Below, piece by piece: positions 8,216 through 54,556 of a stretch of 64,000 nucleotides of DNA. The stretch comes from Deltaproteobacteria bacterium (GTDB lineage: Bacteria > Myxococcota_A > Polyangia > HGW-17 > JAJRWW01). The stretch is taken from NCBI GenBank assembly GCA_029938605.1, contig JAOZUO010000004.1, forward strand, positions 23,048-87,047, given 5' to 3'. Numbering within the stretch: position 1 is the stretch's first letter; every line of letters begins with the position of its first letter. Made by a program: the position numbers and the translations under genes. A model generated the notes under the pieces. It was not told the origin of the DNA. It made no database searches and saw only the letters and a program-made list of their open reading frames with translations.

Positions 8216-8868
8216 GCACTATGGTCAACTTTGTCTCAGGTCCCCTGGTCTGGATCGCCCTGGTCACGTTCGTGGTGGGGACCGTGGTGCGCATTGTCTT
8301 GATGATCCGCACCATCAAACTGGACAAGACCGTCCTGCCCGCCATGACGGTCAAACACAGCCTCCGGTCTATCTTCTTTTGGACGCTGCCCTACGGGAGC
8401 CGGTCCATGCGGACGCGCCCGTTCTTCTCGGGCCTGTCCTACCTCTTCCACCTGTGTCTGCTGGCGCTGCCGCTTACGGTCATGGGGCACGCGGTGCTCT
8501 GGCAACAGGCCTGGGGGATCCGCTGGTGGAGCCTGCCTTCCGGGGTGGCGGACGTGATGACGGCGGTGGTGATCTTCGCCGGGGGGATCTTTTTGTTGCG
8601 GCGGATCATGTCTCCGGAGGTGCGCAACGTAAACACCTGGCGGGACTACGTGATCCTGGTCATCGTTCTTTTGCCCTTCGTCACCGGGTTCATCGCCTAC
8701 CACCAGTGGCTGGACTACCGGACGATCATCATCCTGCACATGGTCAGCGGCGCGGTGTGGCTCATGGCCATTCCGTTTACGTGGCTGCAGCACATGTTCA
8801 TGTTCTTCTTCTCCCGAGCGTACATGGGCAGCGAGTTCGGCGCCGTACGCAACGCGCGGGATTGGTAA
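8212..8868 (+). CDS. hmcE: NarI-type dihaem cytochrome b membrane subunit (HmcE / DsrM / HmeC family)
   Basis: 218 aa with 5-6 TM helices and conserved His in helices (LFHLCLL, MGHAVL, ILHMVSG, LQHMF), as in nitrate-reductase-gamma-like quinol-oxidising subunits. The size matches HmcE. Confidence 0.8.
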   Translation: MSTMVNFVSGPLVWIALVTFVVGTVVRIVLMIRTIKLDKTVLPAMTVKHSLRSIFFWTLPYGSRSMRTRPFFSGLSYLFHLCLLALPLTVMGHAVLWQQAWGIRWWSLPSGVADVMTAVVIFAGGIFLLRRIMSPEVRNVNTWRDYVILVIVLLPFVTGFIAYHQWLDYRTIIILHMVSGAVWLMAIPFTWLQHMFMFFFSRAYMGSEFGAVRNARDW

Positions 8869-8880
8869 AGGGTAGGTCGT

Positions 8881-14296: not shown

Positions 14297-14345
14297 GGGC
14301 TTCGGTGACGACCGGGCTTCGGTGACGACCGGGCTTCGGTGAAGG
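14297..14345 (+). repeat. Intergenic 17-bp tandem repeat (about 2.9 copies) directly upstream of the receiver gene RBS
   Basis: gggcttcggtgacgacc gggcttcggtgacgacc gggcttcggtgaagg, followed by GAAGGAGA and the ATG at 14357. Confidence 0.8.
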
Positions 14346-14356
14346 AGACAGACCCC

Positions 14357-14887
14357 ATGGAGAATGAGAAACCCAAGCTGGTGCTGGTCGTCGACGACGA
14401 GCCCGACGTGCGCATGTTCATCGAGGCGGCCCTCGAGGACGCGGGCTTTGAGGTGGTCACGGCGGGCAACGGTCACGAGGCCTACAACCGCGTCAAGGAG
14501 CGGGCGCCGGATTTCATTACGCTGGATCTGGTCATGCCCAAGCAGTCGGGCGCGCTGTTTTATCTGAAGCTGTGCAACAACAAGACCTGGTGTGACATCC
14601 CGGTGATGATCATCTCGGCCCACGCTCACGACGAGTTGGGCGAAGACGACTTTCGGCAGCTCATGAAGGGGCAGGGCGCGCCCCGCCCGACGCACTTCAT
14701 GGAGAAGCCGGTGCGTCCAGACGAGCTCGTGCGAGTCGTGTGCGAAACCCTCGGGTTGGATCCGAGTGGTGCTGTCGCCGACGACGCCACCACCGACGCC
14801 CGGGATGAGGTGTTTTCCAAGCTTAAGGGCGCCGACTTGAAGACCCTAAAGAGGATCCGGTCGGTGCTCGACAAGGAGGAGGGCTGA
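14357..14887 (+). CDS. Stand-alone CheY-like receiver (REC) protein
   Basis: KLVLVVDDEPDVRMFIEAALEDAGFEVVTAGNGHEAYNRVKERAPDFITLDLVMPKQSG...IPVMIISAH. The acidic pocket and phospho-acceptor Asp are present, and there is no output domain. A strong RBS (GAAGGAGA) lies 8 nt upstream. It is a paralogue of the REC genes at 45311 and 48457. Confidence 0.8.
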   Translation: MENEKPKLVLVVDDEPDVRMFIEAALEDAGFEVVTAGNGHEAYNRVKERAPDFITLDLVMPKQSGALFYLKLCNNKTWCDIPVMIISAHAHDELGEDDFRQLMKGQGAPRPTHFMEKPVRPDELVRVVCETLGLDPSGAVADDATTDARDEVFSKLKGADLKTLKRIRSVLDKEEG

Positions 14888-14915: not shown

Positions 14916-16448
14916 ATGGCACCTGACGAGCTTAGAACCTGGATCAGCGAGCAGCTGTTCGATGTCGCCCCCATCGCCATCGCCACCATCGATCGTGACT
15001 TCAACGTCGTGCAGGCCAACGCGGCCTTTGAGGCGAAGTTCGGCGAGTGGCAGGGGCGCAAGTGCTACCAGGTCTACAAGGACCGGGACGCGCTGTGCCC
15101 GCGGTGCATGGCGTCACGGTCCTTCGAGGATGGGCAGAGCCGCGTCACCCCCGAGGTGGGCGTGGACGAGCACGGATCGATCACCCACTACATCAAGCAC
15201 ACCGTGCCCATCGTGCGGGAGTCCGGGGAGATCCCGTATCTGGTGGAGATGTCCATCGACATCACCGAGTCGCTGCGACTCGAAGATGAGCTGCACATCG
15301 CCCACGACTTTCTGAAGACGCTCATCGCCACCTCTGCCGACGCCATCGTGGGCGTCAACGCGGACCAGGAGGTGCGGGTGGTGAACCCTGCGGCGCGAAA
15401 GCTGTTCAAGATCGCCGACACCGAGACCCTCACCGGGGATCAGCTGGTGGAGATCCTGCCCCGGGGCCTGTTCGACGACGTCTTCTCCTGCGACCGCAGC
15501 CTGCTTCTGCCCGAGACCACCGTGCGCGCCACCGACGGGGAGGAGATCCCCGTGCGGCTGGCCGGGGCGTGCATGGAGTCGGGCGGCAAGCTGCTCGGGG
15601 GCGCCATCTCCATCACCGACCACCGGGAGCTGCGAGATCTGCAGGCCGAGAAGCTGGAGGCCGAGCGGTTGGCGGCGGTGGGGCAGACCGTGGCGGGCCT
15701 GGCCCACGGGGTCAAGAACCTGCTGACGGGCCTGGAGGGGGGCATGTACCTCATGTCCACCGGCCTCAAAAAGGGCAACCAGAAGCGGGTAGATAACGGC
15801 TGGGACATGCTCAACCGGAACATCGTCCGCATCTCCCGGTTCGTGCGCGACTTCTTGAGCTTCTCCAAGGGCCGGACCATCACCGTGGAGCCGGCAGACC
15901 CCGTGGCCGTGGCCCGGGAGGTGGTGGGCCTCTACGTGGCCCGGGCCGAAGAGGCCGGCGTGAAGCTCACCTGGAGCGCCAAAGGAGACATCGCCCCGGC
16001 CAACCTCGACTTCGAAGGCTTGCATGACTGCCTCACCAACCTGGTGGGCAACGCCATGGATGCCTGCCAGATGAGCGAGCACGAATCCGATCCCGAGTCC
16101 GAGCTCGAGCCCGATCCCGAGTCCGAGGGTGGTCAGGCAGAGGCGGGCTCCACCGTGCACGTCTGCGTGTCCGACGAAGACGGCGTGCTGCGCTACTCGG
16201 TGACCGACAACGGCGTGGGCATGGACTACGAGCTTAAGCAGAAGGTCTTCACCACGTTCTTCACCACCAAGGGTCTCGGCGGCACCGGCCTGGGCCTGCT
16301 CACCACCCGCAAGATCATCCAGGAGCACGGCGGCCGCATCGAGCTGGAGTCCACCCCCGGCAAAGGCTCCACCTTCACCATCCTCCTCCCCCGCGACCGC
16401 CTCCCCGCCCGCACCACCAAGAGCGACGACCCCGACCAGGGCGCGTAA
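14916..16448 (+). CDS. Sensor histidine kinase with two PAS domains (first PAS carries a C-x11-CPRC cysteine motif)
   Basis: PAS (IAIATIDRDFNVVQANAAFEAKFGEWQGRKCYQVYKDRDALCPRCMASRSF), a second PAS, a HisKA H-box (LAAVGQTVAGLAHGVKNLL) and HATPase_c (TDNGVGMD...KGLGGTGLGLLTTRKIIQEHGGRIELESTPGKGSTFTI). An acidic insert has a DPESELEPDPESE DNA repeat. Confidence 0.85.
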   Translation: MAPDELRTWISEQLFDVAPIAIATIDRDFNVVQANAAFEAKFGEWQGRKCYQVYKDRDALCPRCMASRSFEDGQSRVTPEVGVDEHGSITHYIKHTVPIVRESGEIPYLVEMSIDITESLRLEDELHIAHDFLKTLIATSADAIVGVNADQEVRVVNPAARKLFKIADTETLTGDQLVEILPRGLFDDVFSCDRSLLLPETTVRATDGEEIPVRLAGACMESGGKLLGGAISITDHRELRDLQAEKLEAERLAAVGQTVAGLAHGVKNLLTGLEGGMYLMSTGLKKGNQKRVDNGWDMLNRNIVRISRFVRDFLSFSKGRTITVEPADPVAVAREVVGLYVARAEEAGVKLTWSAKGDIAPANLDFEGLHDCLTNLVGNAMDACQMSEHESDPESELEPDPESEGGQAEAGSTVHVCVSDEDGVLRYSVTDNGVGMDYELKQKVFTTFFTTKGLGGTGLGLLTTRKIIQEHGGRIELESTPGKGSTFTILLPRDRLPARTTKSDDPDQGA

Positions 16449-29036: not shown

Positions 29037-30697
29037 GTAACCGTTCACGGGGTGTGACACCGCTTTGGTCTTCTGGGGGACCCCGTGGACCAGTTGGCGA
29101 CCATGCTTGAGGTGATGCCTCCGTTCGGGCGCGAGGCGAAGAAAAAGTTGACTTCCCGATCGAGGAGATCCTAATAGGTGGATCTCACGCCGACTCAAAA
29201 AGCTTGAAAGCACGCTGCAGCAGGTTCAAGAGGCACTCCTGGCTCTAAGCAGGGAGAACGCTGCGCTTCGTGAGGAGAACGCTGCGCTTCGTGAGGAGAA
29301 CGCTGCGCTTCGTGAGGAGAACGCCGCGCTCCGTACTCGCGTGGCGGAGTTGGAGGAGAAGCTGCGAACCGACTCGTCGAACTCCTCGAAGCCGCCATCG
29401 AGTGACCCACCATGGGCAGACACAAAGAAGCGCAAGCGGGGGAAGCGCAAACGTCGGCCCGGCGGCCAGCCTGGACACAAAGGAAAAACCCGTGCCCTGC
29501 TACCTCCCGCCCAGGTAGACGACTTCGTGACGTGCCATCCGCCAACGCTGTGTGGCTGCGGAGGGCATGTGGTCCGTACTGACGAGGACCCGCAGCGGTT
29601 GCAGAATTTGGAACTGGCGCAGATCAAGGCATACGTCACGGAGTACCTGCTGTTGAGCGGGCTCTGTGATCAGTGCGGAAGACTGCATCTTGGGAAGCTG
29701 CCCCCTGAATCTCCAACCGGCGTGCTGGGCCCGCGGGCGATGGCGGCAGTGGCGGTCCTCTCGGGCAAGTATCACTTGAGCAAACGACAGGTCGAGGAGG
29801 TCCTACAGGACCTACTGGGAATACAGGTGTCGTTGGGCACGGTGTCCAATACTGAGGCCCGGGTCAGCGCCGCCCTGGAAGCCCCTTTTGAGGAAGCCAG
29901 AGCTTACGTCCGCGAGCAACCCGTGGTCCACGCCGACGAGACGGGTCACAAGATGGCCGGGAAGAAGGCGTGGATGTGGACCGCGGTGACGGTTGCTGTA
30001 AGCGTATTCCTGATCCGTTTCACCCGTGCGACGAAAGCAGCCAAGGAGCTGCTGGGAGCCACCTTCGCTGGGATCTTGGTTTCCGACCGGTGGGGGGCGT
30101 ACAACTGGGTGGACACCACTCGGCGCCAGATTTGTTGGGCCCATCTCATTCGGGATTTGGTGAAAATCGAAGCGCGAGGCTGGCGCTCGGAAGAAATTGC
30201 TAGCGAGATTTTGGAGTATGTCAAAGAGATGTTTGTCCTGTGGAACACGTTCCAACAAGGCAAGCGTCAGCGCCCGTGGTTGCAGCGAAAGATGAAGGTG
30301 ATCCGCGAGAAAATTGAGGGTCTCCTTGAGCAGGGTGAAGTTTGCTACCACATCAAGACGCAGGCCACGTGCAAGCGGCTCCTTAAGTTGAAGAACGCGC
30401 TGTGGACCTACGTGGATGTCCCGGGTGTCGAGCCGACAAACAACCTTGCGGAACGCACGATCAGACCCTACGTACTCTGGCGCCGGGTGAGCTTCGGAAC
30501 GCAATCTGAGCGCGGCAATCGGTTCGTGGAGAGAATGATGACGGTGTCGGCAACCTGCAGGCAGCAGGATCGCAACGTGCTTGAGTATGTGACAGCGGCT
30601 GTGCAAGCTCACACGCAAGGGAAAGCCATCCCTTCTCTTCTCCCTCAGGCCAAAGCTGAAATTTCTGAAGCAGCAGCCTGACCCCGTGAACGGTTAC
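29037..30697. mobile_element. IS66-family insertion sequence, single-ORF type, ~1.66 kb, with 17-bp perfect terminal inverted repeats beginning GTAA
   Basis: Left IR GTAACCGTTCACGGGGT (29037..29053) and right IR ACCCCGTGAACGGTTAC (30681..30697) are perfect reverse complements. The right IR abuts the transposase stop codon. No 8-bp target-site duplication is evident (flanks gtcgattg / cgttaacg). Confidence 0.8.
29341..30681 (+). CDS. IS66-family transposase (TnpC-like)
   Basis: Hallmarks are SSNSSKPPSSD, QPGHKGKTR, the zinc-ribbon-like CGCGGHV...CDQCG, the DDE region HADETGHKMAGKKAWMWTAVT, CWAHLIRD and the C-terminal LWTYVD...PTNNLAERTIRP. In-frame coiled-coil sequence (LKKLESTLQQVQEALLALSRENAALREENAALREENAALREENAALRTRVAELEEKL) extends upstream to 29152 with no canonical start codon, so the true start is unresolved (GTG at 29341 as listed). 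Confidence 0.8.
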   Translation: MAELEEKLRTDSSNSSKPPSSDPPWADTKKRKRGKRKRRPGGQPGHKGKTRALLPPAQVDDFVTCHPPTLCGCGGHVVRTDEDPQRLQNLELAQIKAYVTEYLLLSGLCDQCGRLHLGKLPPESPTGVLGPRAMAAVAVLSGKYHLSKRQVEEVLQDLLGIQVSLGTVSNTEARVSAALEAPFEEARAYVREQPVVHADETGHKMAGKKAWMWTAVTVAVSVFLIRFTRATKAAKELLGATFAGILVSDRWGAYNWVDTTRRQICWAHLIRDLVKIEARGWRSEEIASEILEYVKEMFVLWNTFQQGKRQRPWLQRKMKVIREKIEGLLEQGEVCYHIKTQATCKRLLKLKNALWTYVDVPGVEPTNNLAERTIRPYVLWRRVSFGTQSERGNRFVERMMTVSATCRQQDRNVLEYVTAAVQAHTQGKAIPSLLPQAKAEISEAAA

Positions 30698-42466: not shown

Positions 42467-42556
42467 GGGTTGGGAGTATATCTTATTGGACCTCGGTCGT
42501 TGGTCATTGTCCCGCTGGTTATTAGGATTTATACTCGGGCTGGTGATTACAGGAAA

Positions 42557-44188
42557 ATGACACACATTAACGTCCAACGATGGGAACCCATCACGTCGCT
42601 TGCCCGGCAGCGTCCGCTTGGTGCTTTGGGTTGGCTGCTTCTGGCCTTTGGGGCGATCACCCTGGGAGCGTCTTCGGGCTGCCTCACCGACTTCTCCTCG
42701 CCGGGCTCCGGAGATGGAGGGGGCGCGGGCATTTGCGGCAACGGCATCGTGGAGGGTGCGGAGGCCTGCGATGACGGAGCGCTGAACCCCGGGGACGGGT
42801 GCGACGCCACCTGCCATTTGGAGCCGGGGTGGAACTGCTTCGGAGAGCCCAGCGTCTGCGCCATGTCTTGCGGCAACCTGGCGCTTGATCCGGGGGAGGA
42901 TTGTGACGGCAACCTGCTGGGCGGGGCTACCTGCGAGACCGTCTATGCCGGCTTTGATGGCGGAGACCTGGGGTGTACCGAGGCCTGCTTCTTTGACACC
43001 GCCAACTGTCACCTGCCCGGGTGTGGCGACGGGATGGTGGGCGTCAACGAGGAGTGCGACGACGGGAACACCTCCAACTCAGATGATTGCCTGAACAACT
43101 GTAGCGCCGCAGTGTGCGGCGACGGCTACATCCGCGCCGGCGTGGAGGAGTGCGACGACGCCAACGTCTATGACACTGACTACTGCACCAACGCGTGCAA
43201 GAACGCGGTGTGCGGCGACGGCTTCGTCTGGGTGGGGGTGGAGGTCTGCGACGACGGCAACGCCAGCTTGACCGACGGCTGCCCGGATGGGGCCATGGGC
43301 ACATGCCAACCGGCGGTGTGCGGGGACGGCCACGTCTGGGTGGGGCACGAGACCTGTGACGACCAGAACACCTCCAACACCGACGCCTGCCCCAGCAGCT
43401 GTGTTGCCGCCACCTGCGGGGACGGCTACGTCTGGTCGGGGAATGAACAGTGCGATGACGGGGACACCTCCAATTCGAATGACTGCCTTACGAACTGTAT
43501 CCACGCCACCTGTGGGGACGGCTACGTCTGGGTGGGCCACGAGACCTGTGACGACCAGAACACCTCCAACACCGACGCCTGCCTCAGCAACTGCGTCGCC
43601 GCCTTCTGTGGGGATGGCTACATTCGCGCCGGCTCGGAGGCGTGCGACGACGGAAACACCTCGAGCGGGGACGGCTGCAGCGCCTCGTGCACGGTGGAGT
43701 GTACGGGCTCTCTCACCACCACGTACACCGGCGGCGACTGGTTGTACCCGGGCGCCCTCATGTTCGAGGTCAGGGCGCTGACGGCCATGGAGCTCACCGG
43801 CATGGACGTGAGCCTGGAAGGCGACCCCACGGTGGACGTGGTAATTTACTATCGGCGTGGTATCTACGCTGGCCATGAGTCCACTCAGGCCGACTGGATC
43901 CTCCACACCACGGTGTCGGGCATCACCGCGGCGGGCATTCATCAACCCACATCGATTTCCATGCCCACGCTCTCGATGAGCAGCGGGGAGCTGATCTCCC
44001 TGTACGTGGCCACCACCTCGTCGAATCAGAAGATATTCAGCAATGTCGGGACCAGTGAGGGCGCAGTGTACAGGTCCAACTCATTTTTGACGGTGTATGA
44101 GGGGATCTCCCTGTACCACGCTTTCAGCACCACCCAATACTCGCCCCGGGTCTTTAACGGAACCCTCTACTACGACATCTGTCCCTAG
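42557..44188 (+). CDS. Secreted lipoprotein with about nine Myxococcus cysteine-rich repeats and a C-terminal beta-sandwich-like domain
   Basis: Start MTHINVQRWEPITSLARQRPLGALGWLLLAFGAITLGASSGC. Repeats of the form CGDG(Y/H/F)(V/I)xxGxExCDDGNTSNxDxCxxxCxxAxCGDG are seen about nine times. Two near-identical units at 43320-43440 and 43500-43620 (VCGDGHVWVGHETCDDQNTSNTDAC...) point to a recent internal duplication. Confidence 0.75.
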   Translation: MTHINVQRWEPITSLARQRPLGALGWLLLAFGAITLGASSGCLTDFSSPGSGDGGGAGICGNGIVEGAEACDDGALNPGDGCDATCHLEPGWNCFGEPSVCAMSCGNLALDPGEDCDGNLLGGATCETVYAGFDGGDLGCTEACFFDTANCHLPGCGDGMVGVNEECDDGNTSNSDDCLNNCSAAVCGDGYIRAGVEECDDANVYDTDYCTNACKNAVCGDGFVWVGVEVCDDGNASLTDGCPDGAMGTCQPAVCGDGHVWVGHETCDDQNTSNTDACPSSCVAATCGDGYVWSGNEQCDDGDTSNSNDCLTNCIHATCGDGYVWVGHETCDDQNTSNTDACLSNCVAAFCGDGYIRAGSEACDDGNTSSGDGCSASCTVECTGSLTTTYTGGDWLYPGALMFEVRALTAMELTGMDVSLEGDPTVDVVIYYRRGIYAGHESTQADWILHTTVSGITAAGIHQPTSISMPTLSMSSGELISLYVATTSSNQKIFSNVGTSEGAVYRSNSFLTVYEGISLYHAFSTTQYSPRVFNGTLYYDICP

Positions 44189-44192
44189 ACAA

Positions 44193-45209
44193 TCAAGACA
44201 GTTGCCCGACGAGCCGCAGCACGGCGGTGGCCACGTCCGGAGTCGGGAGCGGTGGCGGGGTTCGCTGGCCGGCGTTGAGCTCCCCCAGGAAGCGACGTAG
44301 CCGCTGGGGAGTGAAGGAGCCGAAGGTGCACCCGTCGCCCAGGCCGGCGCCACGAAGCATCTCCACGTTGAAGCGTTGCTCGTCGTCGTCTGCGTCGTAC
44401 AGGGCGAACTGGCTCACGCCCAAAAAGACGCACTCGGACATGAGCTGGCTCCCCGCAGAGGAGACCACCGCCGGGGCTGTGCGCAGTCCTTCGACAAAGT
44501 CGGCGCGATTCAGTGATCGGACGTTGATGGCGGCACGGGGCGGGTGGATGTGGCGGGTGAACAGGGTCACCGGGTGGCCGTGGTCTGCCAGCGCATCGAG
44601 CACTGCGTGGGCGTTGTTGTCCCGGAAGTAGGCCACCAGGGGGGCGTTTGGGTCGGGGTGAGGCGGTGAGGCCAGCAGGTCGGGCGGCAGGGCGGGTGAC
44701 GCTACGGTGGTGTGGACGGGATCCAGGGGTCGAAGCCTGACGAAGGACACCGCCACATGGTGGGTCGCGCCGAGGGACGACGCGCGGACCTTGAGCCCCT
44801 CTCGCCACCAGGCGCCGCGGTTCACCCCGGGCGGTCGGTGGCACGTGCCGGCCACGAGCCCGTGCCCCACCACCACGGTCGGGATATCGTGCAGGCGTGC
44901 AGCGATCAGGCCCGGGAGATCCGAGTCCGAGACCACGACGCTGGGGCGGTGGACCCGTTGGGCGGCGAGTGCCTCTCCCACTCGCCAGGCCACCAGAGGC
45001 GGCGTTCGTAGGCTGAATCGAGAGGGTATGCTTTGCACCCGACGACACTCGGTGACTTCGCGCACCAGGAGGGTGGCGTCCTCCCCGGCGAAGGCCAGCA
45101 CCCGGTAGCCCGCCTCGTTCAGAGCGCGGATTACGGCCACCGATCGCGTGGCGTGTTCCAGGCCGCGGCCGTGGACGTAATAGTGCACCAGTTTGTTGTT
45201 GGTGGGCAT
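44193..45209 (-). CDS. UDP-sugar-dependent glycosyltransferase, GT-B fold (MurG/PseG/MGT-like family 28/1)
   Basis: N-terminal HYYVHGRGLEHATRSVAVIRAL...G motif typical of MGT/GT28 N-domains, with a C-terminal nucleotide-sugar binding half. The exact family is not resolved. Confidence 0.6.
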   Translation of the reverse strand: MPTNNKLVHYYVHGRGLEHATRSVAVIRALNEAGYRVLAFAGEDATLLVREVTECRRVQSIPSRFSLRTPPLVAWRVGEALAAQRVHRPSVVVSDSDLPGLIAARLHDIPTVVVGHGLVAGTCHRPPGVNRGAWWREGLKVRASSLGATHHVAVSFVRLRPLDPVHTTVASPALPPDLLASPPHPDPNAPLVAYFRDNNAHAVLDALADHGHPVTLFTRHIHPPRAAINVRSLNRADFVEGLRTAPAVVSSAGSQLMSECVFLGVSQFALYDADDDEQRFNVEMLRGAGLGDGCTFGSFTPQRLRRFLGELNAGQRTPPPLPTPDVATAVLRLVGQLS

Positions 45210-45310
45210 AGGGTTTGATCAATGAAGCGCCCGCGATGGGGCGCACCTCCGGTCCGGGAGTATCTCCCGATCCTCTAGCGCCGGTCAAGGGCACCCCAGA
45301 CCGGTAGGGA

Positions 45311-45829
45311 TTACTCGGTCTTGAGCCTGAGGTTGATGGCGTGCAGGATCTCTGTATCCCGGTTGCGGGCGCGGCTTGTGATGGATCTTTGGTGGGTGGC
45401 CAGACCGATGTCCTCGTCGTTGATGTCTACTTGGAGGAGCTCGGCGATGAGGCGCACTAGCTCGGGGGGGGTGATGGGTTTTTCCAACACCCGTGCGGGG
45501 CGATGGTCCCGGGGGAAGGCGAGCAGTTGCCGCAGGGCCTCCTCGCCGAGCTCGTCCCGCAGGTGGGCGGTGATCAGGATGACCGGAATCCTCTCCCAGG
45601 GGCGGTTTTCGCGGAGCTTACGCAAAAAGGCCAGGCCGTTCATGCGCGGCATAACCATGTCGAGGGTGATCAAGTCCGGCGTGAGCGTGGCGAGCTGATC
45701 CAGGGCGTACTGACCGTCCTCGGCGGTGTGGACCACGAATCCGGCGTCTTCGGCGCAGGCCTCGAGGAACATGCGCACGTCCGGCTCGTCCTCCACTACC
45801 AGGATCGTTTTGTCATTCGCGTGTACCAT
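45311..45829 (-). CDS. Stand-alone CheY-like receiver (REC) protein, paralogue of the REC at 14357
   Basis: TILVVEDEPDVRMFLEACAEDAGFVVHTAEDGQYALDQLATLTPDLITLDMVMPRMNGLAFLRKL...IPVILITAH...DELGEEALRQL...EKPITPPELVRLI. It shares the distinctive DEPDVRMF(I/L)EA...GF.V.TA..G...PD(F/L)ITLD.VMP...IPV..I(S/T)AH..DELGE..(F/L)RQL...EKP..P.ELVR signature with the 14357 gene. 8-nt gap to the upstream HdrD-like gene. Confidence 0.8.
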   Translation of the reverse strand: MVHANDKTILVVEDEPDVRMFLEACAEDAGFVVHTAEDGQYALDQLATLTPDLITLDMVMPRMNGLAFLRKLRENRPWERIPVILITAHLRDELGEEALRQLLAFPRDHRPARVLEKPITPPELVRLIAELLQVDINDEDIGLATHQRSITSRARNRDTEILHAINLRLKTE

Positions 45830-45837
45830 GGGAGATT

Positions 45838-47448
45838 CTAGAACTCATCCTCCCACTTGATGAATCCCTCTTTGACCTCCGTCATGGCGTTGACGATGAG
45901 CTCCACGAGGCCCGAGTAGATCAAGCTCTCCTTCTCCTTCATCTCGTAGCGGTCGAAGATGTCGCGGATCTGGCCCTTACAGTTGGAGCAGGGAGCGCAG
46001 ACGTACTTGGGGGTCTCGGGCCCGCGGCAGTCACCGAAGGCGTCGAGGATCTGGGTTAGCTTTTTGCGGCCCGCTACCTTGTGACGCCAGTCGGGGATGT
46101 TGTTGCGGGTCATGATGGCGAAGCCGCTGCCCCCGCCGCAGCAGTAGTTGTGGACCCCATGGGGCACCATCTCCCGGAACTGCGGGCAGAGCTTCTTCAC
46201 GATGTCCCGTTGGGGCTTGATGATGCCCATGAGCCGGGTGACATTGCAGGGGTCGTGGATGGTCACGGGGAAGTCGTTGCGGCTCGGATCAAAGTCGATC
46301 TTGCCCGACATGACGATCTCCCTGAGCAGCGGGAAACAGCTCTCCCGGGGGGTCAAGAGCTCTTGGGGCAGCACGCGGTCGGCGATGACCGTCAGGGCCT
46401 TGTGGGCGTGGCCACACTCGCCCAGGACGATCTTGTCCACGTTGAGCTTCTTGGCTGCGTTGGCGTGGAGCAGAGCCGTGCGGGCGTACTGCACGTCGTC
46501 GTAGAACACGCCGTAGTTGATGGAGTCGTAGGCCGCCAGGTCGCTCGACAGGGTCCAGGAGCGGATGATGCCGGCCTTTTTCGCCGCCTCGAGGATGATG
46601 CCGAAGGCCCCCACGTTGTCGGGCCAGGCGAGGATCTCCCCGGCGTTGTGGATGAGCAGGATCTCGGCGCCCTCCACGTCCCAGGGGGTCTCGTACTCGT
46701 AGCCGGTTATTTCGGAGATGTCCTCGTCGATGAATTCCATGTTGTCCTTGACCACCAGGGAGTTCATGTTTGTGGAGGAGCCGGATTTGAGCTGCAGCAT
46801 GGATCCGTTTTTGTGCAGCTCGGGGGTGGTGATGCCCATCTCCTGGCTGAAGATCTTGCGGATCTCCCGGGCCACGAGGCCGTTGTCCGCCCCAATGGGA
46901 CAGGTCTGGGCGCAGCGTCGGCAGAGGTTGCAGCGATAGGCGAGCTCCCCCAGCCGTGCCACGGCCTGCCAGGTCAGGTCGATCTTGCCGTTGCGCCAGT
47001 CCGACCACATCTCGCCCTTGATGTGCTTTTTATAGATGCGGCGGAACACCTCCGTCCGGTAGGTGGGCCGGTACATCTCGTTTTCGCCGCTGGCTTCGTA
47101 GATGTGGCAGGCCTGCGAGCAGGTGTTGCACTTGGCGCAGTGGTCCATGGTGGTGACCAACTGCGCCAGGAAGGTCCAGTTGTTCTCGGCGGTGAAGAGC
47201 TTCTCCATGCCTGAGAGGAACTTCTCCACGAAAGCCTTCTGTTCGGCGGGAGTCTTGGGCTTGGGGATGGGTAGAATCGCCGTGTCATCCAGGATGCAGG
47301 CGAAATCTTCCCTGGTGGCCTCGGAGATCTCGCCCCACGCGGGCTCCTCGACGTCGATGGGCAGGGGCATGAGGTCGGCGTTGTCCACGTGGGCGAGCTG
47401 CGGCGTATCCTTGGAGATGTCAGTGATGCGGACGAATTTGTTACTCAT
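45838..47448 (-). CDS. HdrD-like iron-sulfur CCG-domain oxidoreductase (second copy; DsrK/HmeD/HmcF family)
   Basis: CAKCNTCSQACH and CNLCRRCAQTCPIG ferredoxin motifs. CCG-domain motifs are HDPCNVTRL, NYCCGGGSG and CAPCSNCKGQ. It has ~90 extra N-terminal residues relative to the first copy. Confidence 0.85.
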   Translation of the reverse strand: MSNKFVRITDISKDTPQLAHVDNADLMPLPIDVEEPAWGEISEATREDFACILDDTAILPIPKPKTPAEQKAFVEKFLSGMEKLFTAENNWTFLAQLVTTMDHCAKCNTCSQACHIYEASGENEMYRPTYRTEVFRRIYKKHIKGEMWSDWRNGKIDLTWQAVARLGELAYRCNLCRRCAQTCPIGADNGLVAREIRKIFSQEMGITTPELHKNGSMLQLKSGSSTNMNSLVVKDNMEFIDEDISEITGYEYETPWDVEGAEILLIHNAGEILAWPDNVGAFGIILEAAKKAGIIRSWTLSSDLAAYDSINYGVFYDDVQYARTALLHANAAKKLNVDKIVLGECGHAHKALTVIADRVLPQELLTPRESCFPLLREIVMSGKIDFDPSRNDFPVTIHDPCNVTRLMGIIKPQRDIVKKLCPQFREMVPHGVHNYCCGGGSGFAIMTRNNIPDWRHKVAGRKKLTQILDAFGDCRGPETPKYVCAPCSNCKGQIRDIFDRYEMKEKESLIYSGLVELIVNAMTEVKEGFIKWEDEF

Positions 47449-47453
47449 GGTCT

Positions 47454-48401
47454 CTACTCCGGTTCACTGCCGTCGGGCCGCATGGGGTTGTAGCTCGCCA
47501 CCTCCACCCAGTTCTTTTTGCCGTCGGCGTGGATATGCTCGGCGGCCCAGGAGACGGGCTGGCCCAGTGCCTCGCCGATGCGCCTGTTGGTCTCGGGGTT
47601 GTCGATGTTCGGCTCGTCTCCCCAGCGGATGTCGTGCCACAGGAAGTACTTCATGAAAAAGTGCGACATGTGCGTGAGCGGGATGTAGGCGAGCAACACG
47701 AAGATGAGGATCATCTGCGTGGCGAAGAGGGAGGACTCGAACTTGATGAACTTGAAGGTTAAGAGGCTGTAGACGAAACCTCGCATGGTGTGGAACTCGG
47801 GGTCCACCGTACGCCAGGTGTACAGGGCCACGCTGACGGTCACCAGAAAGAGCGCCAGGTTGAAGTAGTGGCCCACCGACGAGTAGTTGCGTAGCTCGAT
47901 GTTGGTGAGGCGTCGCAGCCCGAGGCCCAGGGCGCCCACCGCGCACAGCACAAAGCCCACGGGACCGACGATGCTCGTCACAGCGATCATCAGCCCAGCT
48001 GTGCCACCGGCCCCCGGGAACATGGAGATCCCGGCGGCGTGCAGGATCGCACCGAAGATCAGGAGACCGGCGAAACCCGCCAGGACGTAGAGCCCGAAGT
48101 GGAAGGGGAAGCTCACCCACCACAGGGATTTGTTGTGCTCCCAGACGCCTTTGAGCAGGAGGATCTCGGGGATCATCACCTTCATCTCCCCGAACAGGGA
48201 GACCTCCCGCTTCTTCTTCCACCAGTCCACCTCCTCGAGATAGCCGCCACCCCACTCGGCGCGCTTGGCCTCGTGGGCCACGGGGTACAGCTCCCAGCGT
48301 ACGTGCTGGGGCAGCCTTTTGTAGGCCATGATCCGGGCAAACACGGCGCCTAGAAATACGACTATGGCCGTGTAGGCGACCAGGTAGGCAACGATTGACA
48401 T
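47454..48401 (-). CDS. NarI-type cytochrome b membrane subunit (second copy; DsrM/HmeC family)
   Basis: 315 aa with six TM helices and His residues in helices (FPFHFGLYVL, AILHAAG, VGHYFNLALF, THMSHFFMKYFLWHDI). A 5-nt gap separates it from the HdrD-like gene. Confidence 0.8.
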   Translation of the reverse strand: MSIVAYLVAYTAIVVFLGAVFARIMAYKRLPQHVRWELYPVAHEAKRAEWGGGYLEEVDWWKKKREVSLFGEMKVMIPEILLLKGVWEHNKSLWWVSFPFHFGLYVLAGFAGLLIFGAILHAAGISMFPGAGGTAGLMIAVTSIVGPVGFVLCAVGALGLGLRRLTNIELRNYSSVGHYFNLALFLVTVSVALYTWRTVDPEFHTMRGFVYSLLTFKFIKFESSLFATQMILIFVLLAYIPLTHMSHFFMKYFLWHDIRWGDEPNIDNPETNRRIGEALGQPVSWAAEHIHADGKKNWVEVASYNPMRPDGSEPE

Positions 48402-48456
48402 GGTGAATCTCCTCTCTTCGTCAGCGCTGGGGGCAATTGCGGTTCCTATAGGGCCC

Positions 48457-48837
48457 TTAGGAGAGGAGGTCCGCGATCATCTTCAGCAGCTTGTCCTGAT
48501 CGATGGGCTTGGCCATGAACCCCTCGGGATTGGGCACCTGTTTTCTCGATTTGAGAAAGTGCTCCATGGGCTCTCCCACGGCGGTGATGATCACCACCGG
48601 GATCTTCGCCAGGTCGGGGTCGTCCTTGAGCTTCCGATAGGACTTCACCCCGGACTGCTCCGGCATGGTGATGTCGAGGGTGATCAGGTCCGGCGACGCT
48701 TCCTGGGCCAGGTTCAGACCTTCGATGCCATTTGCGGCCTCGAGGGTGGTGTAGCCGTGATCGGACAGAAGCGACTTGAGAAATGTTCGCACGTCCGGCT
48801 CATCGTCGACGATCAGAATGGTCTTGTTCTCGCTCAT
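48457..48837 (-). CDS. Stand-alone CheY-like receiver (REC) protein, third paralogue
   Basis: TILIVDDEPDVRTFLKSLLSDHGYTTLEAANGIEGLNLAQEASPDLITLDITMPEQSG...IPVVIITAVGEP...MAKPIDQDKLLKMIADL. Same subfamily signature as the other two REC genes. Confidence 0.8.
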   Translation of the reverse strand: MSENKTILIVDDEPDVRTFLKSLLSDHGYTTLEAANGIEGLNLAQEASPDLITLDITMPEQSGVKSYRKLKDDPDLAKIPVVIITAVGEPMEHFLKSRKQVPNPEGFMAKPIDQDKLLKMIADLLS

Positions 48838-48852
48838 GATTCCTAGACGTCC

Positions 48853-49107
48853 TTAGGTCGTGGAGGGTTGTGGTGGTGGTTCGTCCGCGTTCGGTTCGTC
48901 CGCGTTGGATGCACCCGATTCCTGGTGCAGCTTCAGCTCGTTCTGGGCGAGGCTTCGGACCTTGTAGGCCTTGTCCCGCATGGAGCCGAACACGATTCCG
49001 CACCCGGCGTCGGTACGGCAGGCGTCCCCGGCCGAAGCCAGCGCGATCATCTCCTCGGAGAGGTGAATGGCCTGCCTGAGGTAATCGTCTGGGGTCTGGC
49101 TGTCCAT
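48853..49107 (-). CDS. Small cytoplasmic cysteine-containing protein (C-x5-C), first gene of the sigma-54-driven REC-NarI-HdrD-REC operon
   Basis: 84 aa: MDSQTPDDYLRQAIHLSEEMIALASAGDACRTDAGCGIVFGSMRDKAYKVRSL..., with a C-terminal NADEPNADEP repeat. AAGGAG lies 11 nt upstream of ATG and a sigma-54 promoter ~35 nt upstream. Confidence 0.4.
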   Translation of the reverse strand: MDSQTPDDYLRQAIHLSEEMIALASAGDACRTDAGCGIVFGSMRDKAYKVRSLAQNELKLHQESGASNADEPNADEPPPQPSTT

Positions 49108-49150
49108 CGGGTTGCACGCTCCTTATGGTTGGGCTGCGACCGATACCCAA

Positions 49151-49166
49151 TGCAACCTGCGGGCCA
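49151..49166 (-). promoter_or_regulatory. Sigma-54 (-24/-12) promoter, minus strand
   Basis: The minus-strand sequence TGGCCCG-CAGG-TTGCA matches the consensus TGGCACG-N4-TTGCW at 15 of 16 defined positions with correct spacing. The predicted start of transcription lies ~33 nt upstream of the ATG at 49107. Confidence 0.55.
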
Positions 49167-49353
49167 GCTTCGTGACGACCTGGAGATCCCCTGTGATTGC
49201 GAGCGTATGTCCGGAAAGTGCTGGAAAGTGTCTGAGACCGGTGGGGGGGCGTGTGTCGGGATATTTCGGGTTTTTTTCCAATCGTCCGGGGTTGATAACG
49301 AGGCTAACACACTGGAAACACTGATACCTGTGGCCGACAGGTGGATGGGTTCC

Positions 49354-49397
49354 GTGTCTCGGGATCGAATCCGGGACACGCCCGAGACACGAGACAC
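49354..49397. promoter_or_regulatory. Cluster of GTGTC(T)CGGG half-sites in palindromic arrangement, candidate enhancer (UAS) for the adjacent sigma-54 activator
   Basis: gtgtctcggg atcgaat ccgggacac g cccgagacac gagacacggg contains a 26-nt near-palindrome plus a 10-bp inverted repeat. It lies ~190-240 bp upstream of the sigma-54 promoter and just downstream of the activator gene stop. No U-tract follows, so a simple terminator is unlikely. Confidence 0.4.
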
Positions 49398-49423
49398 GGG
49401 GGGGGGCGCGGTCCGGGGGCGCT

Positions 49424-51172
<1,749 letters not shown>

Positions 51173-51289
51173 GCTGCTTCTTCCCGCGTGGTCGTTGCCT
51201 GCCGTCGTTGCCTGCCTCGCTGCCTAAGCCTGGTTCTCCTACATGCGTCGCCAAAGGTCAACCGAGGTCCGCTGCCGGCGGGGCGATCT

Positions 51290-51358
51290 GGGCTCAGGCT
51301 TGGGCTCAGGCTTGGGCACTGCTTGGGCACTGCTTGGGCACTGCTTGGGCTTAGGCCT
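51290..51358. repeat. Intergenic compound tandem repeat (12-bp x2 then 11-bp x3)
   Basis: gggctcaggctt gggctcaggctt gggcactgctt gggcactgctt gggcactgctt gggcttaggcctgg. It lies between the hybrid kinase gene end and the sigma-54 activator gene start (minus strand). Confidence 0.85.
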
Positions 51359-53276
51359 GGACTCGGACCTGCCCGCGACGCTCCTCGAGCTCGGCCATGG
51401 CCTCGCGCATCTTCGCCAGACCGTAAGGCTTTGGCAGCACGCCCGAGAAGCCGTGGGACTGGTAGTCGGCCATCACCGGGTCCTGGGAGTAGCCGCTGGA
51501 GACGATGGCCAACACCTCCGGATCGAGCTGACGCAACTGCTTCATGGTCTCGGCGCCTCCGAGTCCACCGGGCACCGTCAGGTCGAGAATCACTAGGTCG
51601 ATGGGGCGGTCCGCGGCTCGCGCCTCTTTCCAGAGTGAGATTGCCTCGGCGCCGTCGGCGGCGGTGGTGATCTCGTACCCCAGCTTGGGCACAATCCGTT
51701 TGGCCATTCGCAAGATACGAGAGTCGTCGTCCATGATCAGCACCCGGCCTCCGTGTACCGCCCGAGAGTGCGTCTCGGTGCGCTTGGGCTCGGGCGTCTT
51801 GTCGTTGGCCGGAAGGTAGATGTTGAAAGTCGTGCCTTGGTCGACCACCGGGTCCACCTGAATGTGGCCGCCGTGGTTGCGTACAATGGAGTAGCACACC
51901 GTTAAGCCCAGGCCGGAACCGGTTTCTTTTGTGGTGAAGTAGGGGTCGAAGATCCGGTCCAGATTCTCCGGCAGAATTCCCTGTCCCTCGTCCTGCAGCC
52001 GGATCCGGGCGTAGGATCCGGGGTCCAGGGGCAGCCCGGAATCGCTGTCGACCTCCGCAACTGAGCTGGTGACCTCGAGCGTTCCGCCGTGGTCCATGGC
52101 CTGCACGGCGTTGATACAGATGTTGCTCACCACCTGCGATATCTGTCCCGGATCTGCGTCCACCCGCGGGAGGTCGCCGAGGTTCAATCGGGTGACGATG
52201 TTGGAGCCGCTGGTCGCGAGGGAGACCGCCTCGGTGATGAGGTCGTCGAGGGCTAGATTTTGCTTCACCGGTTTGCCGCCGCGAGAGAAAGTGAGTAGCT
52301 GCTGGGTGAGGCGCTGCGCTTGATTGGCGGCCAGCCTCGCATCCTCCAGCTCATCTGGCGTGTTATCGGGCCATCCATCGGGCGGGGCGGTCAGGGACAA
52401 GTTGCCGATGATCACCGTCAGCAGATTGTTGAAGTCATGGGCGATGCCCCCGGCTAGGACCCCCAAGGCCTCGAGCTTCTGGGCCTTGAGTAGCTCCTGT
52501 TCCATGGCGCGCCTGGTGGTGATGTCGCGCGCAATTCCCTCCACCGCGATCACTTGCCCCGCGGAGTCGAGCACCGGCGTCTCGAGCACTTCGAACCGCC
52601 GCGGCTCGCCTGACTTGTGAAGAATGTCCACCTCGTAGGGCTGCTGCTGCTCACCGGCGATGCTGCGTTCCGTGTACCTCCGCGCCTCTTCGTTGACGGG
52701 ATCATCAGTGAAGTGTTTGTCGTAGCCGGTGCGATACTCTTGGGTGGTGTAACCCAGGACGTCTTGAATCGAAGGGCTGAGGTAGGTGAAGGCGCCGTGC
52801 CTGTCGTGGGAGTAGAAAAAATACTCCTGGCGCAGGTTCTCCACCAGCCGTCGGTATCGCTCCTCGCTTTGCCGAAGGTGCTCCACGGCCAGCTTGGCTT
52901 CGGTTGCGTCGGTGAAGACGCTTGCGATTTCTCCCGTGGCGAGCTTGTAGATGTGGTTCTCGCGCCACCCGGCCGCCCGGTCATCTTTGTAGAAGGTGAT
53001 GGGGAGGTGCTCCGCCTCGCCGGTTCGCCACACCCGATGCATGACCTCTACCAGACCGAACTGTTCGACGCCGGGAAATACCTCGAAGATGTCCTTGCCC
53101 ACCACCTCGCGTCGGTCGATGTTTTCCAGACGTTGGGCGGCCAGGTTGAGGTTGGCGATGATGAAGCTGCGTCCGTCGTCCACGGCGCGGTAGACGATGA
53201 CAGCACTTTCCAGTTGCTCGCATAGGCTACCGAGGTCGAACGCGGAGACACCGTCTGGTTTTTTCTGATCGTTCAT
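51351..53276 (-). CDS. Hybrid sensor histidine kinase (multiple PAS - HisKA - HATPase_c - C-terminal receiver)
   Basis: H-box AHDFNNLLTVIIGNLSL, ATP-lid GSGLGLTVCYSIVRNHGGHIQV and a C-terminal REC (RVLIMDDDSRILRMAKRIVPKLGYEITTAADGAEAI...IDLVILDLTVPGGLGGAETMKQL...AIVSSGYS). Confidence 0.85.
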   Translation of the reverse strand: MNDQKKPDGVSAFDLGSLCEQLESAVIVYRAVDDGRSFIIANLNLAAQRLENIDRREVVGKDIFEVFPGVEQFGLVEVMHRVWRTGEAEHLPITFYKDDRAAGWRENHIYKLATGEIASVFTDATEAKLAVEHLRQSEERYRRLVENLRQEYFFYSHDRHGAFTYLSPSIQDVLGYTTQEYRTGYDKHFTDDPVNEEARRYTERSIAGEQQQPYEVDILHKSGEPRRFEVLETPVLDSAGQVIAVEGIARDITTRRAMEQELLKAQKLEALGVLAGGIAHDFNNLLTVIIGNLSLTAPPDGWPDNTPDELEDARLAANQAQRLTQQLLTFSRGGKPVKQNLALDDLITEAVSLATSGSNIVTRLNLGDLPRVDADPGQISQVVSNICINAVQAMDHGGTLEVTSSVAEVDSDSGLPLDPGSYARIRLQDEGQGILPENLDRIFDPYFTTKETGSGLGLTVCYSIVRNHGGHIQVDPVVDQGTTFNIYLPANDKTPEPKRTETHSRAVHGGRVLIMDDDSRILRMAKRIVPKLGYEITTAADGAEAISLWKEARAADRPIDLVILDLTVPGGLGGAETMKQLRQLDPEVLAIVSSGYSQDPVMADYQSHGFSGVLPKPYGLAKMREAMAELEERRGQVRVQA

Positions 53277-53395
53277 CCGAGTCGAATTGGAGCCAGTCGC
53301 GGTAACGGCATGGTCGGATTGCAGATGTGAAACATAGTCTTCCTTACGAAGTTATTCATGTGTGATAAATAGTATGTCTTTACTATCTCGAGGCG

Positions 53396-54556
53396 TCAAG
53401 GGTCATAGGTTCCCGGGCTGGATCCCCGGTCTGAGGCGTTCAGCAGCTCCAGGATGCGCTGGTTGGCTCGGGGGAAGGCCAGATCGGATAGCTGCGCCAC
53501 GGGGAGCCACTGCCAGGCGTCAGCAGCCCGGGGCTTCGGCGTTCCGCCCAGGTGGGTGCAGTGATAGGCGTGTAGGGTGATGCGGAAGTGAGTGTAGGCG
53601 TGTTCGAGGGTGGTGATCTTCGTTCCCACGGACACTTCGATGCCCAGCTCCTCGGCGATCTCCCGGCGTACGGTCTCAGTGAGCTTCTCCCGTCCTTCGC
53701 GCTTGCCCCCGGGGAACTCCCACAGGCCGCCCAGCAGGCCGTCTGCCGGGCGTTTTTGTACCAACACATCGCCAATGTCGTTGTGGATGACCCCTACGCC
53801 GATGGTGTAGTGGGGCGTGGCTCGCTTGGGCCTGGGTAGGGGGATCTGGTGCTGGCGCCCCTGTCGGTGGGCTTGGCACCAGCGGCGCACGGGGCAGTCG
53901 CCACACGTCGGCGCGCCCGAGCCGCACACTGTGGCGCCCAACTCCATGAGTGCCTGGTTGTGGTCCGCCGGGTCCGGTGCATCCTCCACCAGGATCTCGG
54001 CCGCCCGCCAGAGCCACCGGTCCACGGGCGGCCGCCCCTTGTCGGCAGCTACCGCATAGAGCCGCAGCAGCACCCGCTTGACGTTGGCGTCGAGCACCGG
54101 ATGGCGCTGCCCATGGGCGAAGCACAGGATGGACCCGGCCGTGGATCGCCCCACCCCTGGCAGCCCGTTGACCGCCGCCAGGTCCCGGGGCATCAGCCCG
54201 CCGTGGTCTGTCACCAGGATCCCCGCCGCCCGGTGCAGGTTGCGCGCCCTGGCGTAGTAGCCGAGCCCCTCCCACAGCTTGAGCACCTCGTCGAGCTCGG
54301 CGGTGGCCAGCGTCGCGACATCGCGAAAACGCTCCAGGAACCGTTGGTAGTACGGGATCACCGTCTCCACCCGAGTTTGCTGGAGCATGATCTCAGAGAC
54401 CCAGATGCGATAGGGATCGGGCGTCCGCCGCCAGGGTAGGTCCCGATGACCGCGCCCATACCAGGCCCCAAGCGCTCTGGCGAAGGCCGGTCGCCGCCGA
54501 AGGATCGGTAGCTCCGGCAGCGCCGGCAGCTCCGGTTTGCTTTCTTTCTTCGCCAT
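53396..54556 (-). CDS. mutY: A/G-specific adenine DNA glycosylase MutY
   Basis: HhH-GPD core (LPGVGRSTAGSIL), a [4Fe-4S] loop (CGSGAPTCGDCPVRRWC) and a C-terminal NUDIX-like domain (LWEFPGGKREGRE...). Start placed at MAKKESK (54556); the ORF extends to 54637. Confidence 0.8.
   Translation of the reverse strand: MAKKESKPELPALPELPILRRRPAFARALGAWYGRGHRDLPWRRTPDPYRIWVSEIMLQQTRVETVIPYYQRFLERFRDVATLATAELDEVLKLWEGLGYYARARNLHRAAGILVTDHGGLMPRDLAAVNGLPGVGRSTAGSILCFAHGQRHPVLDANVKRVLLRLYAVAADKGRPPVDRWLWRAAEILVEDAPDPADHNQALMELGATVCGSGAPTCGDCPVRRWCQAHRQGRQHQIPLPRPKRATPHYTIGVGVIHNDIGDVLVQKRPADGLLGGLWEFPGGKREGREKLTETVRREIAEELGIEVSVGTKITTLEHAYTHFRITLHAYHCTHLGGTPKPRAADAWQWLPVAQLSDLAFPRANQRILELLNASDRGSSPGTYDP

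Follow-up and report, generated by a model that had tools for sequence, protein, structure and literature searches.

Redox complexes that join a NarI-like membrane subunit to an HdrD-like iron-sulfur (Fe-S) subunit are represented by the DsrMK part of DsrMKJOP and by the Tmc and Hmc complexes, and the genes of the latter are accompanied by genes for regulators. The hmc operon has rrf1 and rrf2 downstream, and the regulator genes DVU0258-0260 lie next to tmc in D. vulgaris; the association of receivers with membrane redox complexes has been noted since these two operons and, to our knowledge, has never been explained. Deltaproteobacteria that possess DsrMK alone in addition to DsrMKJOP have been described, and so have dsrM2K2 paralogues in sulfate reducers (PMC10504309, PMC6018796); response-regulator, Usp and kinase genes were found beside tmc/hmc of D. 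multivorans in an arrangement 'resembling' that of D. vulgaris (PMC5109826). Among sigma-54 activators, OrpR of D. vulgaris carries C52, E/D54, C61 and C65 in a PAS domain with a redox-sensitive [4Fe-4S] cluster, its switch-off at raised redox potential requiring the PAS cysteines (PMC8359166), and FisR provides a precedent for the control of sqr by an activator of this class (PMC7315123). Here we report on a 64,000-nucleotide stretch (the window) from a Deltaproteobacteria bacterium of the lineage Myxococcota_A (assembly GCA_029938605.1, contig JAOZUO010000004.1), in which an enzyme of the NarI/HdrD type is encoded between two stand-alone receiver (REC) genes. The locus is best read as a copy of a sigma-54 regulatory cassette that is both conserved and portable, and it is quite probable that the enzyme is an exchangeable cargo of this conserved sigma-54/REC unit.

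Five open reading frames (ORFs) on the minus strand at 45311-49166 encode, in this order, a small conserved protein (48853-49107, 84 aa, a predicted two-helix hairpin from a family without a Pfam entry), the receiver REC126 (48457-48837, 126 aa, Pfam Response_reg 6.2e-23), a NarI-like membrane subunit (47454-48401, 315 aa, Pfam Nitrate_red_gam 31 bits with a gathering score of 22.9), an HdrD/DsrK-like cytoplasmic Fe-S subunit (45838-47448, 536 aa, Pfam Fer4_8 and CCG, NCBIfam DsrK 291.5 bits) and the receiver REC172 (45311-45829, 172 aa with a C-terminal extension of about 40 aa, Response_reg 1e-23). The genes are separated, from 5' to 3', by 15, 55, 5 and 8 nt, and Shine-Dalgarno-like motifs can be read directly in the sequence ahead of genes 1-4. 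A preliminary description of the window, made from its letters alone, had proposed this operon at the same coordinates, and its ORFs, gaps and domains are confirmed by Pfam and NCBIfam, as is its remark that no cytochrome c, additional FeS or NrfD gene lies within the five-gene operon.

A sigma-54 -24/-12 element, TGGCCCGCAGGTTGCA, is located at 49151-49166 (minus strand), 44 nt 5' of the first ATG, which is that of the small gene. It is the sole match to TGGC-N7-TTGCW within the window, and as about one such match (1.09 window-wide) is expected by chance the match by itself is no evidence; it becomes credible because it falls in the 316-nt gap between the operon and the gene of a sigma-54 enhancer-binding protein (EBP) and because it is conserved in related loci, TGG[CT]-N8-TGC being present 37-85 nt ahead of the small-gene orthologue in 22 of 31 loci and nearly matched in the others. 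Approximately 190-240 nt upstream of the promoter, at 49353-49391 (minus strand), a perfect 11-nt inverted repeat, CGTGTCTCGGG-N17-CCCGAGACACG, represents a candidate EBP site, of which additional half-site copies occur at 49371-49383 and 49247-49259. The repeat core TGTCTC/GAGACA was recovered in 41-44 of 48 orthologous upstream regions, at similar distances, as compared to 6-8 in shuffled sequences. An A/T-rich tract, TTGGAAAAAAACCCGAAATAT (49262-49285, minus strand), lies between this repeat and the -24/-12 element and could be a DNA-bending site of the integration host factor type. The locus combines the sigma-54 consensus (GG-N10-GC; TGGCAC-N5-TTGCW), an appropriate start-codon distance and an adjacent GAFTGA-containing EBP with upstream sites, and the near-consensus promoter that had been placed at the head of the operon is upheld by an element and an inverted repeat that are conserved across dozens of loci.

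The EBP itself (49424-51172, minus strand, 582 aa; Sigma54_activat 3.7e-70, PAS, HTH_8) carries the GAFTGA motif in its AAA+ domain and is, according to Pfam, devoid of a receiver domain, its domain order being a degenerate ArsC/low-molecular-weight protein tyrosine phosphatase-like N-domain, a PAS domain with four invariant cysteines, AAA+ and HTH_8. Residues 1-150 are homologous to the thioredoxin-coupled ArsC of B. subtilis (2ipa, E=7.6e-13), the Pfam LMWPc match being sub-threshold (18.2 vs 23.2 bits). The CX5R loop of this domain reads GMGPSSL and thus has neither Cys nor Arg, Gly stands in place of C82, and the equivalent of C89 is the only residue of the ArsC relay that is kept, being present in 19 of 20 orthologues; judged by these residues the domain is catalytically dead. 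In the PAS domain C193-x8-C202-x3-C206-x2-C209 is invariant in 20 of 20 orthologues, with D195 at position +2 from the first Cys, and from this we infer an OrpR-like Fe-S redox sensor to which a degenerate ArsC-like domain has been joined. A full-length EBP orthologue accompanies the cluster in approximately 20 loci, usually with a PAS kinase gene directly upstream of its own gene; a PAS histidine kinase, mostly of non-hybrid type, is encoded immediately ahead of the EBP in at least 13 related loci. The kinase of the window (51351-53276, minus strand, 641 aa) is a soluble hybrid histidine kinase with the Pfam architecture PAS-PAS-HisKA-HATPase-REC. The activator and the hybrid kinase had been thought to complete a single regulatory circuit with the operon, a proposal that is at odds with an EBP that possesses sensor domains of its own (ArsC-like and Cys4 PAS) and no receiver domain. 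As the latter is missing, the kinase cannot act on the EBP by ordinary phosphotransfer, and more plausibly it would phosphorylate the stand-alone RECs.

The extent to which this arrangement is conserved was determined by scanning a genome collection with the HdrD-like protein, which returned 80 loci at 63-87% identity in several phyla, the closest to the window being that of a Myxococcota metagenome-assembled genome (MAG; L001). Fifty of these loci had at least 700 nt on both sides of the enzyme pair, and here both RECs were found in 21, the downstream REC only in 7 and no REC in 22. Among the 28 loci with an HdrD identity of at least 68% (Myxococcota and Desulfobacterota) the corresponding numbers were 20, 5 and 3, as compared to 1, 2 and 19 among the 22 loci below 68% (Desulfovibrionaceae/Mailhella, Zixibacteria, Acidobacteriota and Planctomycetota). 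The preliminary description would have been wrong if pairs of this kind never occurred with REC genes; the REC-narI-hdrD-REC neighbourhood does recur, predominantly in the close relatives. The enzyme pair can clearly also exist without RECs, the REC-free loci of the more distant group encoding it at 63-66% HdrD-like identity. Clustering of the neighbouring ORFs in the 80 loci revealed no recurrent enzyme partner, regulators alone being recurrent, and dsrJOP, dsrAB or dsrC were linked neither in the window region nor at any of these loci, a statement that applies to the loci only. In Zixibacteria, a Desulfobacterales MAG and some other MAGs a gene for an Rrf2-family regulator is found immediately ahead of the enzyme pair (L048 4467-5039 and L034 5615-6025; also in L047, L049, L054 and L060). 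The Rrf2 family typically binds Fe-S clusters.

Cassette and enzyme were seen to separate when the small protein was followed, in a closer alignment, into metagenome contigs. A SAR324-like lineage was found to harbour the complete frame of kinase, EBP, small protein, REC-A type and REC-B type receivers, the EBP being 50-51% identical over its full length including the ArsC-like domain, and the REC-A and REC-B types 43-54% and 47-50% identical, respectively; the TGGCATG…TGCT promoter and the GTGTCTCA…TGAGACAC repeat are shared as well. Between the RECs of these loci there is no NarI/HdrD pair but a type III sulfide:quinone reductase (SQR; NF049943, 610 bits with a cut-off of 525), followed by a 218-aa protein with a sub-threshold DUF1641 match (L085 1425-3354; L086, L087 and L089 at approximately 6840-8760; L098 from 6864). 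Because the same cassette surrounds SQR, the RECs are assigned to the cassette, and the enzyme has the appearance of an exchangeable cargo; RECs, small protein, EBP and promoter are, as far as the gene order tells, a unit that is independent of NarI/HdrD and has an exchangeable enzyme slot. The comparison of cargoes suggests that these cassettes share a theme, namely quinone-linked sulfur chemistry under redox or sulfur control.

With respect to the cargo of the window, the HdrD-like subunit contains two CxxCxxCxxxC ferredoxin motifs and one complete CCG motif, and its cysteines C104/107/110/114, C173/176/179/183, C345, C401, C436, C437, C487 and C490 are invariant in 81 of 81 sequences. It reaches none of the relevant NCBIfam cut-offs (400 bits for DsrK; 175 bits with a cut-off of 735 for TmcB; 163 with 750 for HmcF), and its Mailhella and Zixibacteria relatives, at 322-326 bits, are likewise under that of DsrK and are not followed by dsrJOP. 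A fold search with the AlphaFold2 (AF2) model (pLDDT, the predicted local distance difference test score, 82.4) returned EtfD of M. smegmatis (9ojn, E=9.4e-11 over 482 columns) as the only significant match of solved structure, at 15% sequence identity; the sequence search against PDB had recovered just a weak CCG stretch of 9ojn, a match which the fold search thereby confirmed. The NarI-like subunit is not an equivalog of DsrM (19.9 bits, cut-off 300), and as a single sequence it has no match in PDB, a family profile being required, which aligns with E. coli NarI (1q16_C, E=1e-7), in agreement with membership of PF02665. The heme ligands of NarI are H56/H205 (proximal) and H66/H187 (distal). 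H101 and H247 of the NarI-like subunit align with H56 and H205, and both are invariant in 71 of 71 sequences; the positions of H66 and H187 are variable and not occupied by His, the window protein having Q229 at the latter, so that the set of four histidines is incomplete. TmcC of the same window, which served as an internal control, retains the H187 equivalent. The NarI-like subunit thus looks like a single-heme anchor that keeps the proximal heme b ligand pair only. A 65-residue loop between helices 1 and 2 (residues 27-92) and a C-terminal tail (256-315) are rich in residues that are invariant in the family (H33, R35, W36, H43, E44, W60, W61, H256, R259, W260 and H289), have no counterpart in E. 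coli NarI and are cytoplasmic by NarI topology. The conserved features would therefore face the cytoplasm, a disposition that would suit quinone chemistry at the cytoplasmic face without charge separation.

Both receivers display the acidic pocket, acceptor Asp, Thr and Lys of response-regulator receiver domains, these being D12/E13, D55, T85 and K110 in REC126 (D12, D55, T85 and K110 invariant in 30 orthologues) and D14/E15, D57, T87 and K117 in REC172 (D14, D57, T87 and K117 invariant in 19 orthologues). The best NCBIfam match of either protein is the DVU0259 family (NF045717), with 101.2 bits for REC126 and 69.3 bits for REC172, both below the cut-off of 160, and no mention of DVU0258, DVU0259 or DVU0260 was found in the literature searched. 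The small protein matches neither NCBIfam nor, even at E<=1, Pfam, and its 329 relatives (E<=1e-3) are all annotated as 'hypothetical', none having a Pfam domain; an identical protein is encoded in NCBI assembly GCA_029935735.1. Its AF2 model (pLDDT 81.7) consists of helices 6-28 and 36-67, and a Foldseek search against PDB gave no significant match, with generic two-helix hairpins only at E>0.6; the top match, the encapsulated ferritin EncB, is among these and was not taken as homology. Invariant residues are D28, G41, R44, D45, A47, Y48 and R51. The small protein had been described as a Cys protein, and it does contain the C-x5-C motif in question (C30, C36); the motif, however, is not a feature of the family, as C30 is limited to close relatives and C36 is replaced by Ser in 7 of 30 orthologues, and for the same reason a dithiol redox carrier or DsrC analogue was rejected. 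The order small-NarI-HdrD without an upstream REC is found in L007, L028, L033 and L037. As the small protein tracks the activator and the promoter more closely than the RECs do, it is counted here as a putative part of the regulatory cassette; that it feeds back on the activator is a guess.

Taken as a model, the EBP would sit on the TGTCTC…GAGACA inverted repeat and would sense redox or sulfur status via its OrpR-type Cys4 PAS domain, in which a [4Fe-4S] cluster is presumed, and perhaps also via the conserved Cys of its dead ArsC-like domain; once activated, it would open the -24/-12 promoter. One mRNA would then specify the small helical protein, the two single-domain response regulators and, between these, the cargo enzyme. 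The adjacent soluble PAS kinase is the probable phosphodonor of the receivers, which could modulate the cassette through feedback or as a phosphate sink, DNA binding not being expected of them. The cargo would be a two-subunit complex of the DsrMK type, comprising a NarI-like anchor with the cytoplasm-proximal heme b only and an HdrD/DsrK-like subunit with two [4Fe-4S] clusters and one CCG site, and most likely it couples a thiol, persulfide or trisulfide in the cytoplasm to the menaquinone pool, with electrons exchanged on the cytoplasmic side of the membrane and hence with no transmembrane charge movement. A role as a thiol/sulfur:menaquinone enzyme fits with the replacement of the pair by type III SQR in other copies of the cassette. 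What the sequences show directly is the gene content, the conservation of genes, residues, promoter and repeat, and the cargo swap; cofactors, phosphotransfer partners, substrate and the direction in which electrons flow belong to the model. The assignment of the chemistry as quinone-linked thiol or sulfane-sulfur oxidoreduction is tentative, and we place it somewhat short of an even chance; for the combined statement, that this is a redox- or sulfur-responsive sigma-54 cassette with a quinone-linked thiol/sulfane-sulfur oxidoreductase as its cargo, the chances appear evenly balanced.

The enzyme pair is probably the regulated output of the cassette and not its sensor. The preliminary description had leaned towards signalling, and a NarI/HdrD complex that monitors how reduced the quinone pool or the thiols of the cytoplasm are and signals to the receivers and the kinase, with little metabolic flux, would accord with the fixed bracketing of the pair by two RECs, which is conserved in 21 loci, and with the lack of linked genes for an electron-donating or -accepting partner; moreover, the kinase is soluble and has PAS inputs only, so that some membrane link would be needed. 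Nevertheless, the pair stands alone and REC-free in four other phyla at 63-66% identity, in several cases with Rrf2, and as the whole cassette also occurs around the unrelated enzyme SQR the RECs evidently do not need NarI/HdrD. In addition, all cysteines of the catalytic site are invariant and the EBP has a predicted Fe-S sensor domain of its own, and a role for the pair mainly in sensing is improbable.

It is less easy to set aside a genuine second DsrMK, that is a conditional menaquinol:DsrC-trisulfide oxidoreductase working in either direction for dissimilatory sulfite reduction or sulfur oxidation beside a main complex, as DsrK is the best NCBIfam family of the HdrD-like subunit, DsrMK-only copies and dsrM2K2 paralogues have been described from Deltaproteobacteria and sulfate reducers, and many of the carriers are Desulfobacterota. 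This explanation is nonetheless unlikely, in view of scores below the equivalog cut-offs of both DsrK (291 vs 400) and DsrM (20 vs 300), the missing distal heme ligands, the lack of linked dsrAB, dsrC and dsrJOP in the window and the 80 genome loci, and the presence of the pair in Myxococcota, Planctomycetota and Zixibacteria as well, which were counted regardless of their Dsr status. The structural match to EtfD, being the only significant one, raises the prospect of a donor:menaquinone oxidoreductase of the EtfD/EMO type that is unrelated to sulfur and reduces quinone with electrons from a soluble carrier in the cytoplasm, be it electron-transfer flavoprotein (ETF), a dehydrogenase or ferredoxin; in LutA and GlcF the CCG domains do no more than conduct electrons, and the retention of the cytoplasm-proximal heme alone is also compatible with such a function. 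However, there is no etf, dehydrogenase or ferredoxin gene linked at any locus, the identity to EtfD amounts to just 15%, and where the cassette carries another cargo this is a sulfide oxidoreductase, for which reasons this type of enzyme is very unlikely here.

Several points weigh against a sigma-54 cassette with a thiol- or sulfur-linked cargo. Every step put forward for the enzyme and the cassette family is computational; no gene for a sulfur carrier, be it DsrC-like, TusA-like or of another kind, is linked; CCG proteins such as LutA, GlcF and EtfD also serve non-thiol substrates; and the single heme is deduced from a profile alignment to NarI rather than from a structure. The cargo swap, furthermore, is found in five metagenome loci of one lineage and speaks for a shared regulatory frame, not for shared chemistry, and the model accounts neither for the fixed order in which the two RECs bracket the cargo nor for the small protein.

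It may be, albeit this is rather doubtful, that kinase, activator, small protein and the REC…REC frame constitute a horizontally portable sigma-54 'socket' for quinone-linked sulfur oxidoreductases, be it the DsrMK-like pair or type III SQR with the DUF1641-like protein. If the two cargoes were equivalent, the single-heme DsrMK-like clade would represent a non-flavoprotein sulfide/persulfide:quinone oxidoreductase, and in its carriers, Myxococcota, Planctomycetota, Acidobacteriota and Zixibacteria among them, its task would then be the homeostasis of sulfide or reactive sulfur rather than sulfate respiration. In metagenome studies, DsrMK-like pairs that stand alone are frequently taken as markers of dissimilatory sulfur metabolism, and if the parallel with SQR holds the genes of this clade would instead report sulfide/redox homeostasis and not sulfite respiration. 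The locus also extends the OrpR-type Fe-S PAS activator to a new architecture and new target genes, and it offers a compact system for the role of single-domain receivers beside membrane redox complexes.

The surroundings of the operon were also inspected. Scans for terminators and sigma-70 promoters gave nothing above shuffle expectation, leaving the operon without an internal terminator, and an Rfam scan of 44000-54000 found no RNA family. A weak candidate terminator at 45227-45244 (minus strand), with the hairpin GCGCCC-N6-GGGCGC followed by UUCAUU and an RNA-fold region z-score of -1.7, is absent from the output of the terminator scan, and the 3' end of the operon is tentative. The glycosyltransferase gene 3' of REC172 (44193-45209) was considered as a member of the cluster and rejected, its synteny being seen in L001 only, where it is placed differently. 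Two genes (approximately 1.1 kb) downstream of the operon and on the opposite strand, 42470-44188 (+) encodes a protein of 572 aa in which the Cys-rich unit 'CGDG…C…DDGN' is repeated many times in tandem. At a greater distance, an IS66-family transposase (29341-30681, plus strand; DDE_Tnp_IS66, 4.8e-46) is flanked by polysaccharide-synthesis genes on one side and an MTHFR-like gene on the other, where the G+C content is lower (0.59). In related loci, a gene of the histone-deacetylase family (Hist_deacetyl, 1e-55) lies between activator and small gene in L015 (3860-4807), and in L015 (11188-12564), L016, L023 and L028 the downstream kinase/REC genes are succeeded by rnfC, with which an Rnf operon presumably begins.

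The window contains a further NarI/HdrD-type module at 8212-14151 (plus strand), which is a hybrid of the Tmc and Hmc types. It encodes TmcC (268.6 bits, cut-off 240), a TmcB-like protein (669 of 735), an HmcC-like NrfD protein (540.6 of 550), an HmcB-like Fe-S protein and a lipoprotein cytochrome c with 16 CxxCH motifs (approximately 10.2-11.8 kb, in the frame of ORF 9054-11834). It is followed by a REC (14339-14887, plus strand), to which REC172 is 50% identical, and a PAS kinase (14916-16448, plus strand), and is preceded by a divergent OrpR-type activator (4835-6256, minus strand) that also has the C-x8-C-x3-C motif, with Glu at +2. In other genomes the two systems are found together, tmcC, tmcB and tmcA(-like) being located between activator and small gene in L009 (2429-4744), L016 (2438-4906) and L093 (589-1785), and a Tmc-like set being adjacent on the other strand in L105 (11144-14270); as the tmc genes lie inside or adjoin the DsrMK-like cassette, the two make up a single locus in some Desulfobacterales.

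No description of the five-gene sigma-54 cassette, the ArsC-PAS activator, the small protein or the SQR variant was found in the literature searched, which is weak evidence as key subscription papers lay outside it. Among the described systems the enzyme comes closest to the DsrMK of DsrMKJOP, with which it shares a NarI-like membrane subunit, an HdrD-like subunit with two 4Fe-4S motifs and one CCG, and DsrK as best family, but from which it differs in falling below both equivalog cut-offs, in having no distal heme ligands and no linkage to dsrJOP, dsrAB or dsrC, in being embedded in a sigma-54/REC cassette and in occurring in phyla other than Desulfobacterota. EtfD (Rv0338c family, 9ojn) is the only solved structure that combines the NarI-like and HdrD-like architectures; it is a single fused polypeptide, however, and its partner is ETF, for which no genes are linked here. 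The activator resembles OrpR in its PAS-AAA+-HTH organization, in the identical C-x8-C-x3-C spacing with an acidic residue at +2 and in having inverted-repeat sites upstream of a sigma-54 promoter, and is distinguished by the additional N-terminal degenerate ArsC-like domain, by a fourth invariant Cys and by its target, which is a redox-enzyme operon and not the orp genes, its cluster being presumed. In FisR-sqr-pdo operons a receiver-less sigma-54 activator likewise drives a sulfide:quinone reductase operon, making the SQR cassette a functional parallel, albeit with a different sensor domain, without a persulfide dioxygenase and with the addition of small protein, two RECs and kinase; the cargo of the window, moreover, is DsrMK-like and not SQR. 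Finally, the Tmc and Hmc genes similarly place HdrD-like/NarI-like redox complexes next to receiver, kinase and Rrf2 genes, and rrf2 of the hmc operon is echoed by the Rrf2 regulator that precedes the pair, as an alternative regulator, in some genomes. Unlike these, the window operon has no cytochrome c subunit, its TmcB and HmcF scores are far under the cut-offs, and its RECs, which do not reach the DVU0259 cut-off, flank the enzyme genes on both sides within a single sigma-54 operon. The locus is a combination of known kinds, namely a DsrMK paralogue, an OrpR-type activator and a regulator linkage in the style of Tmc/Hmc.

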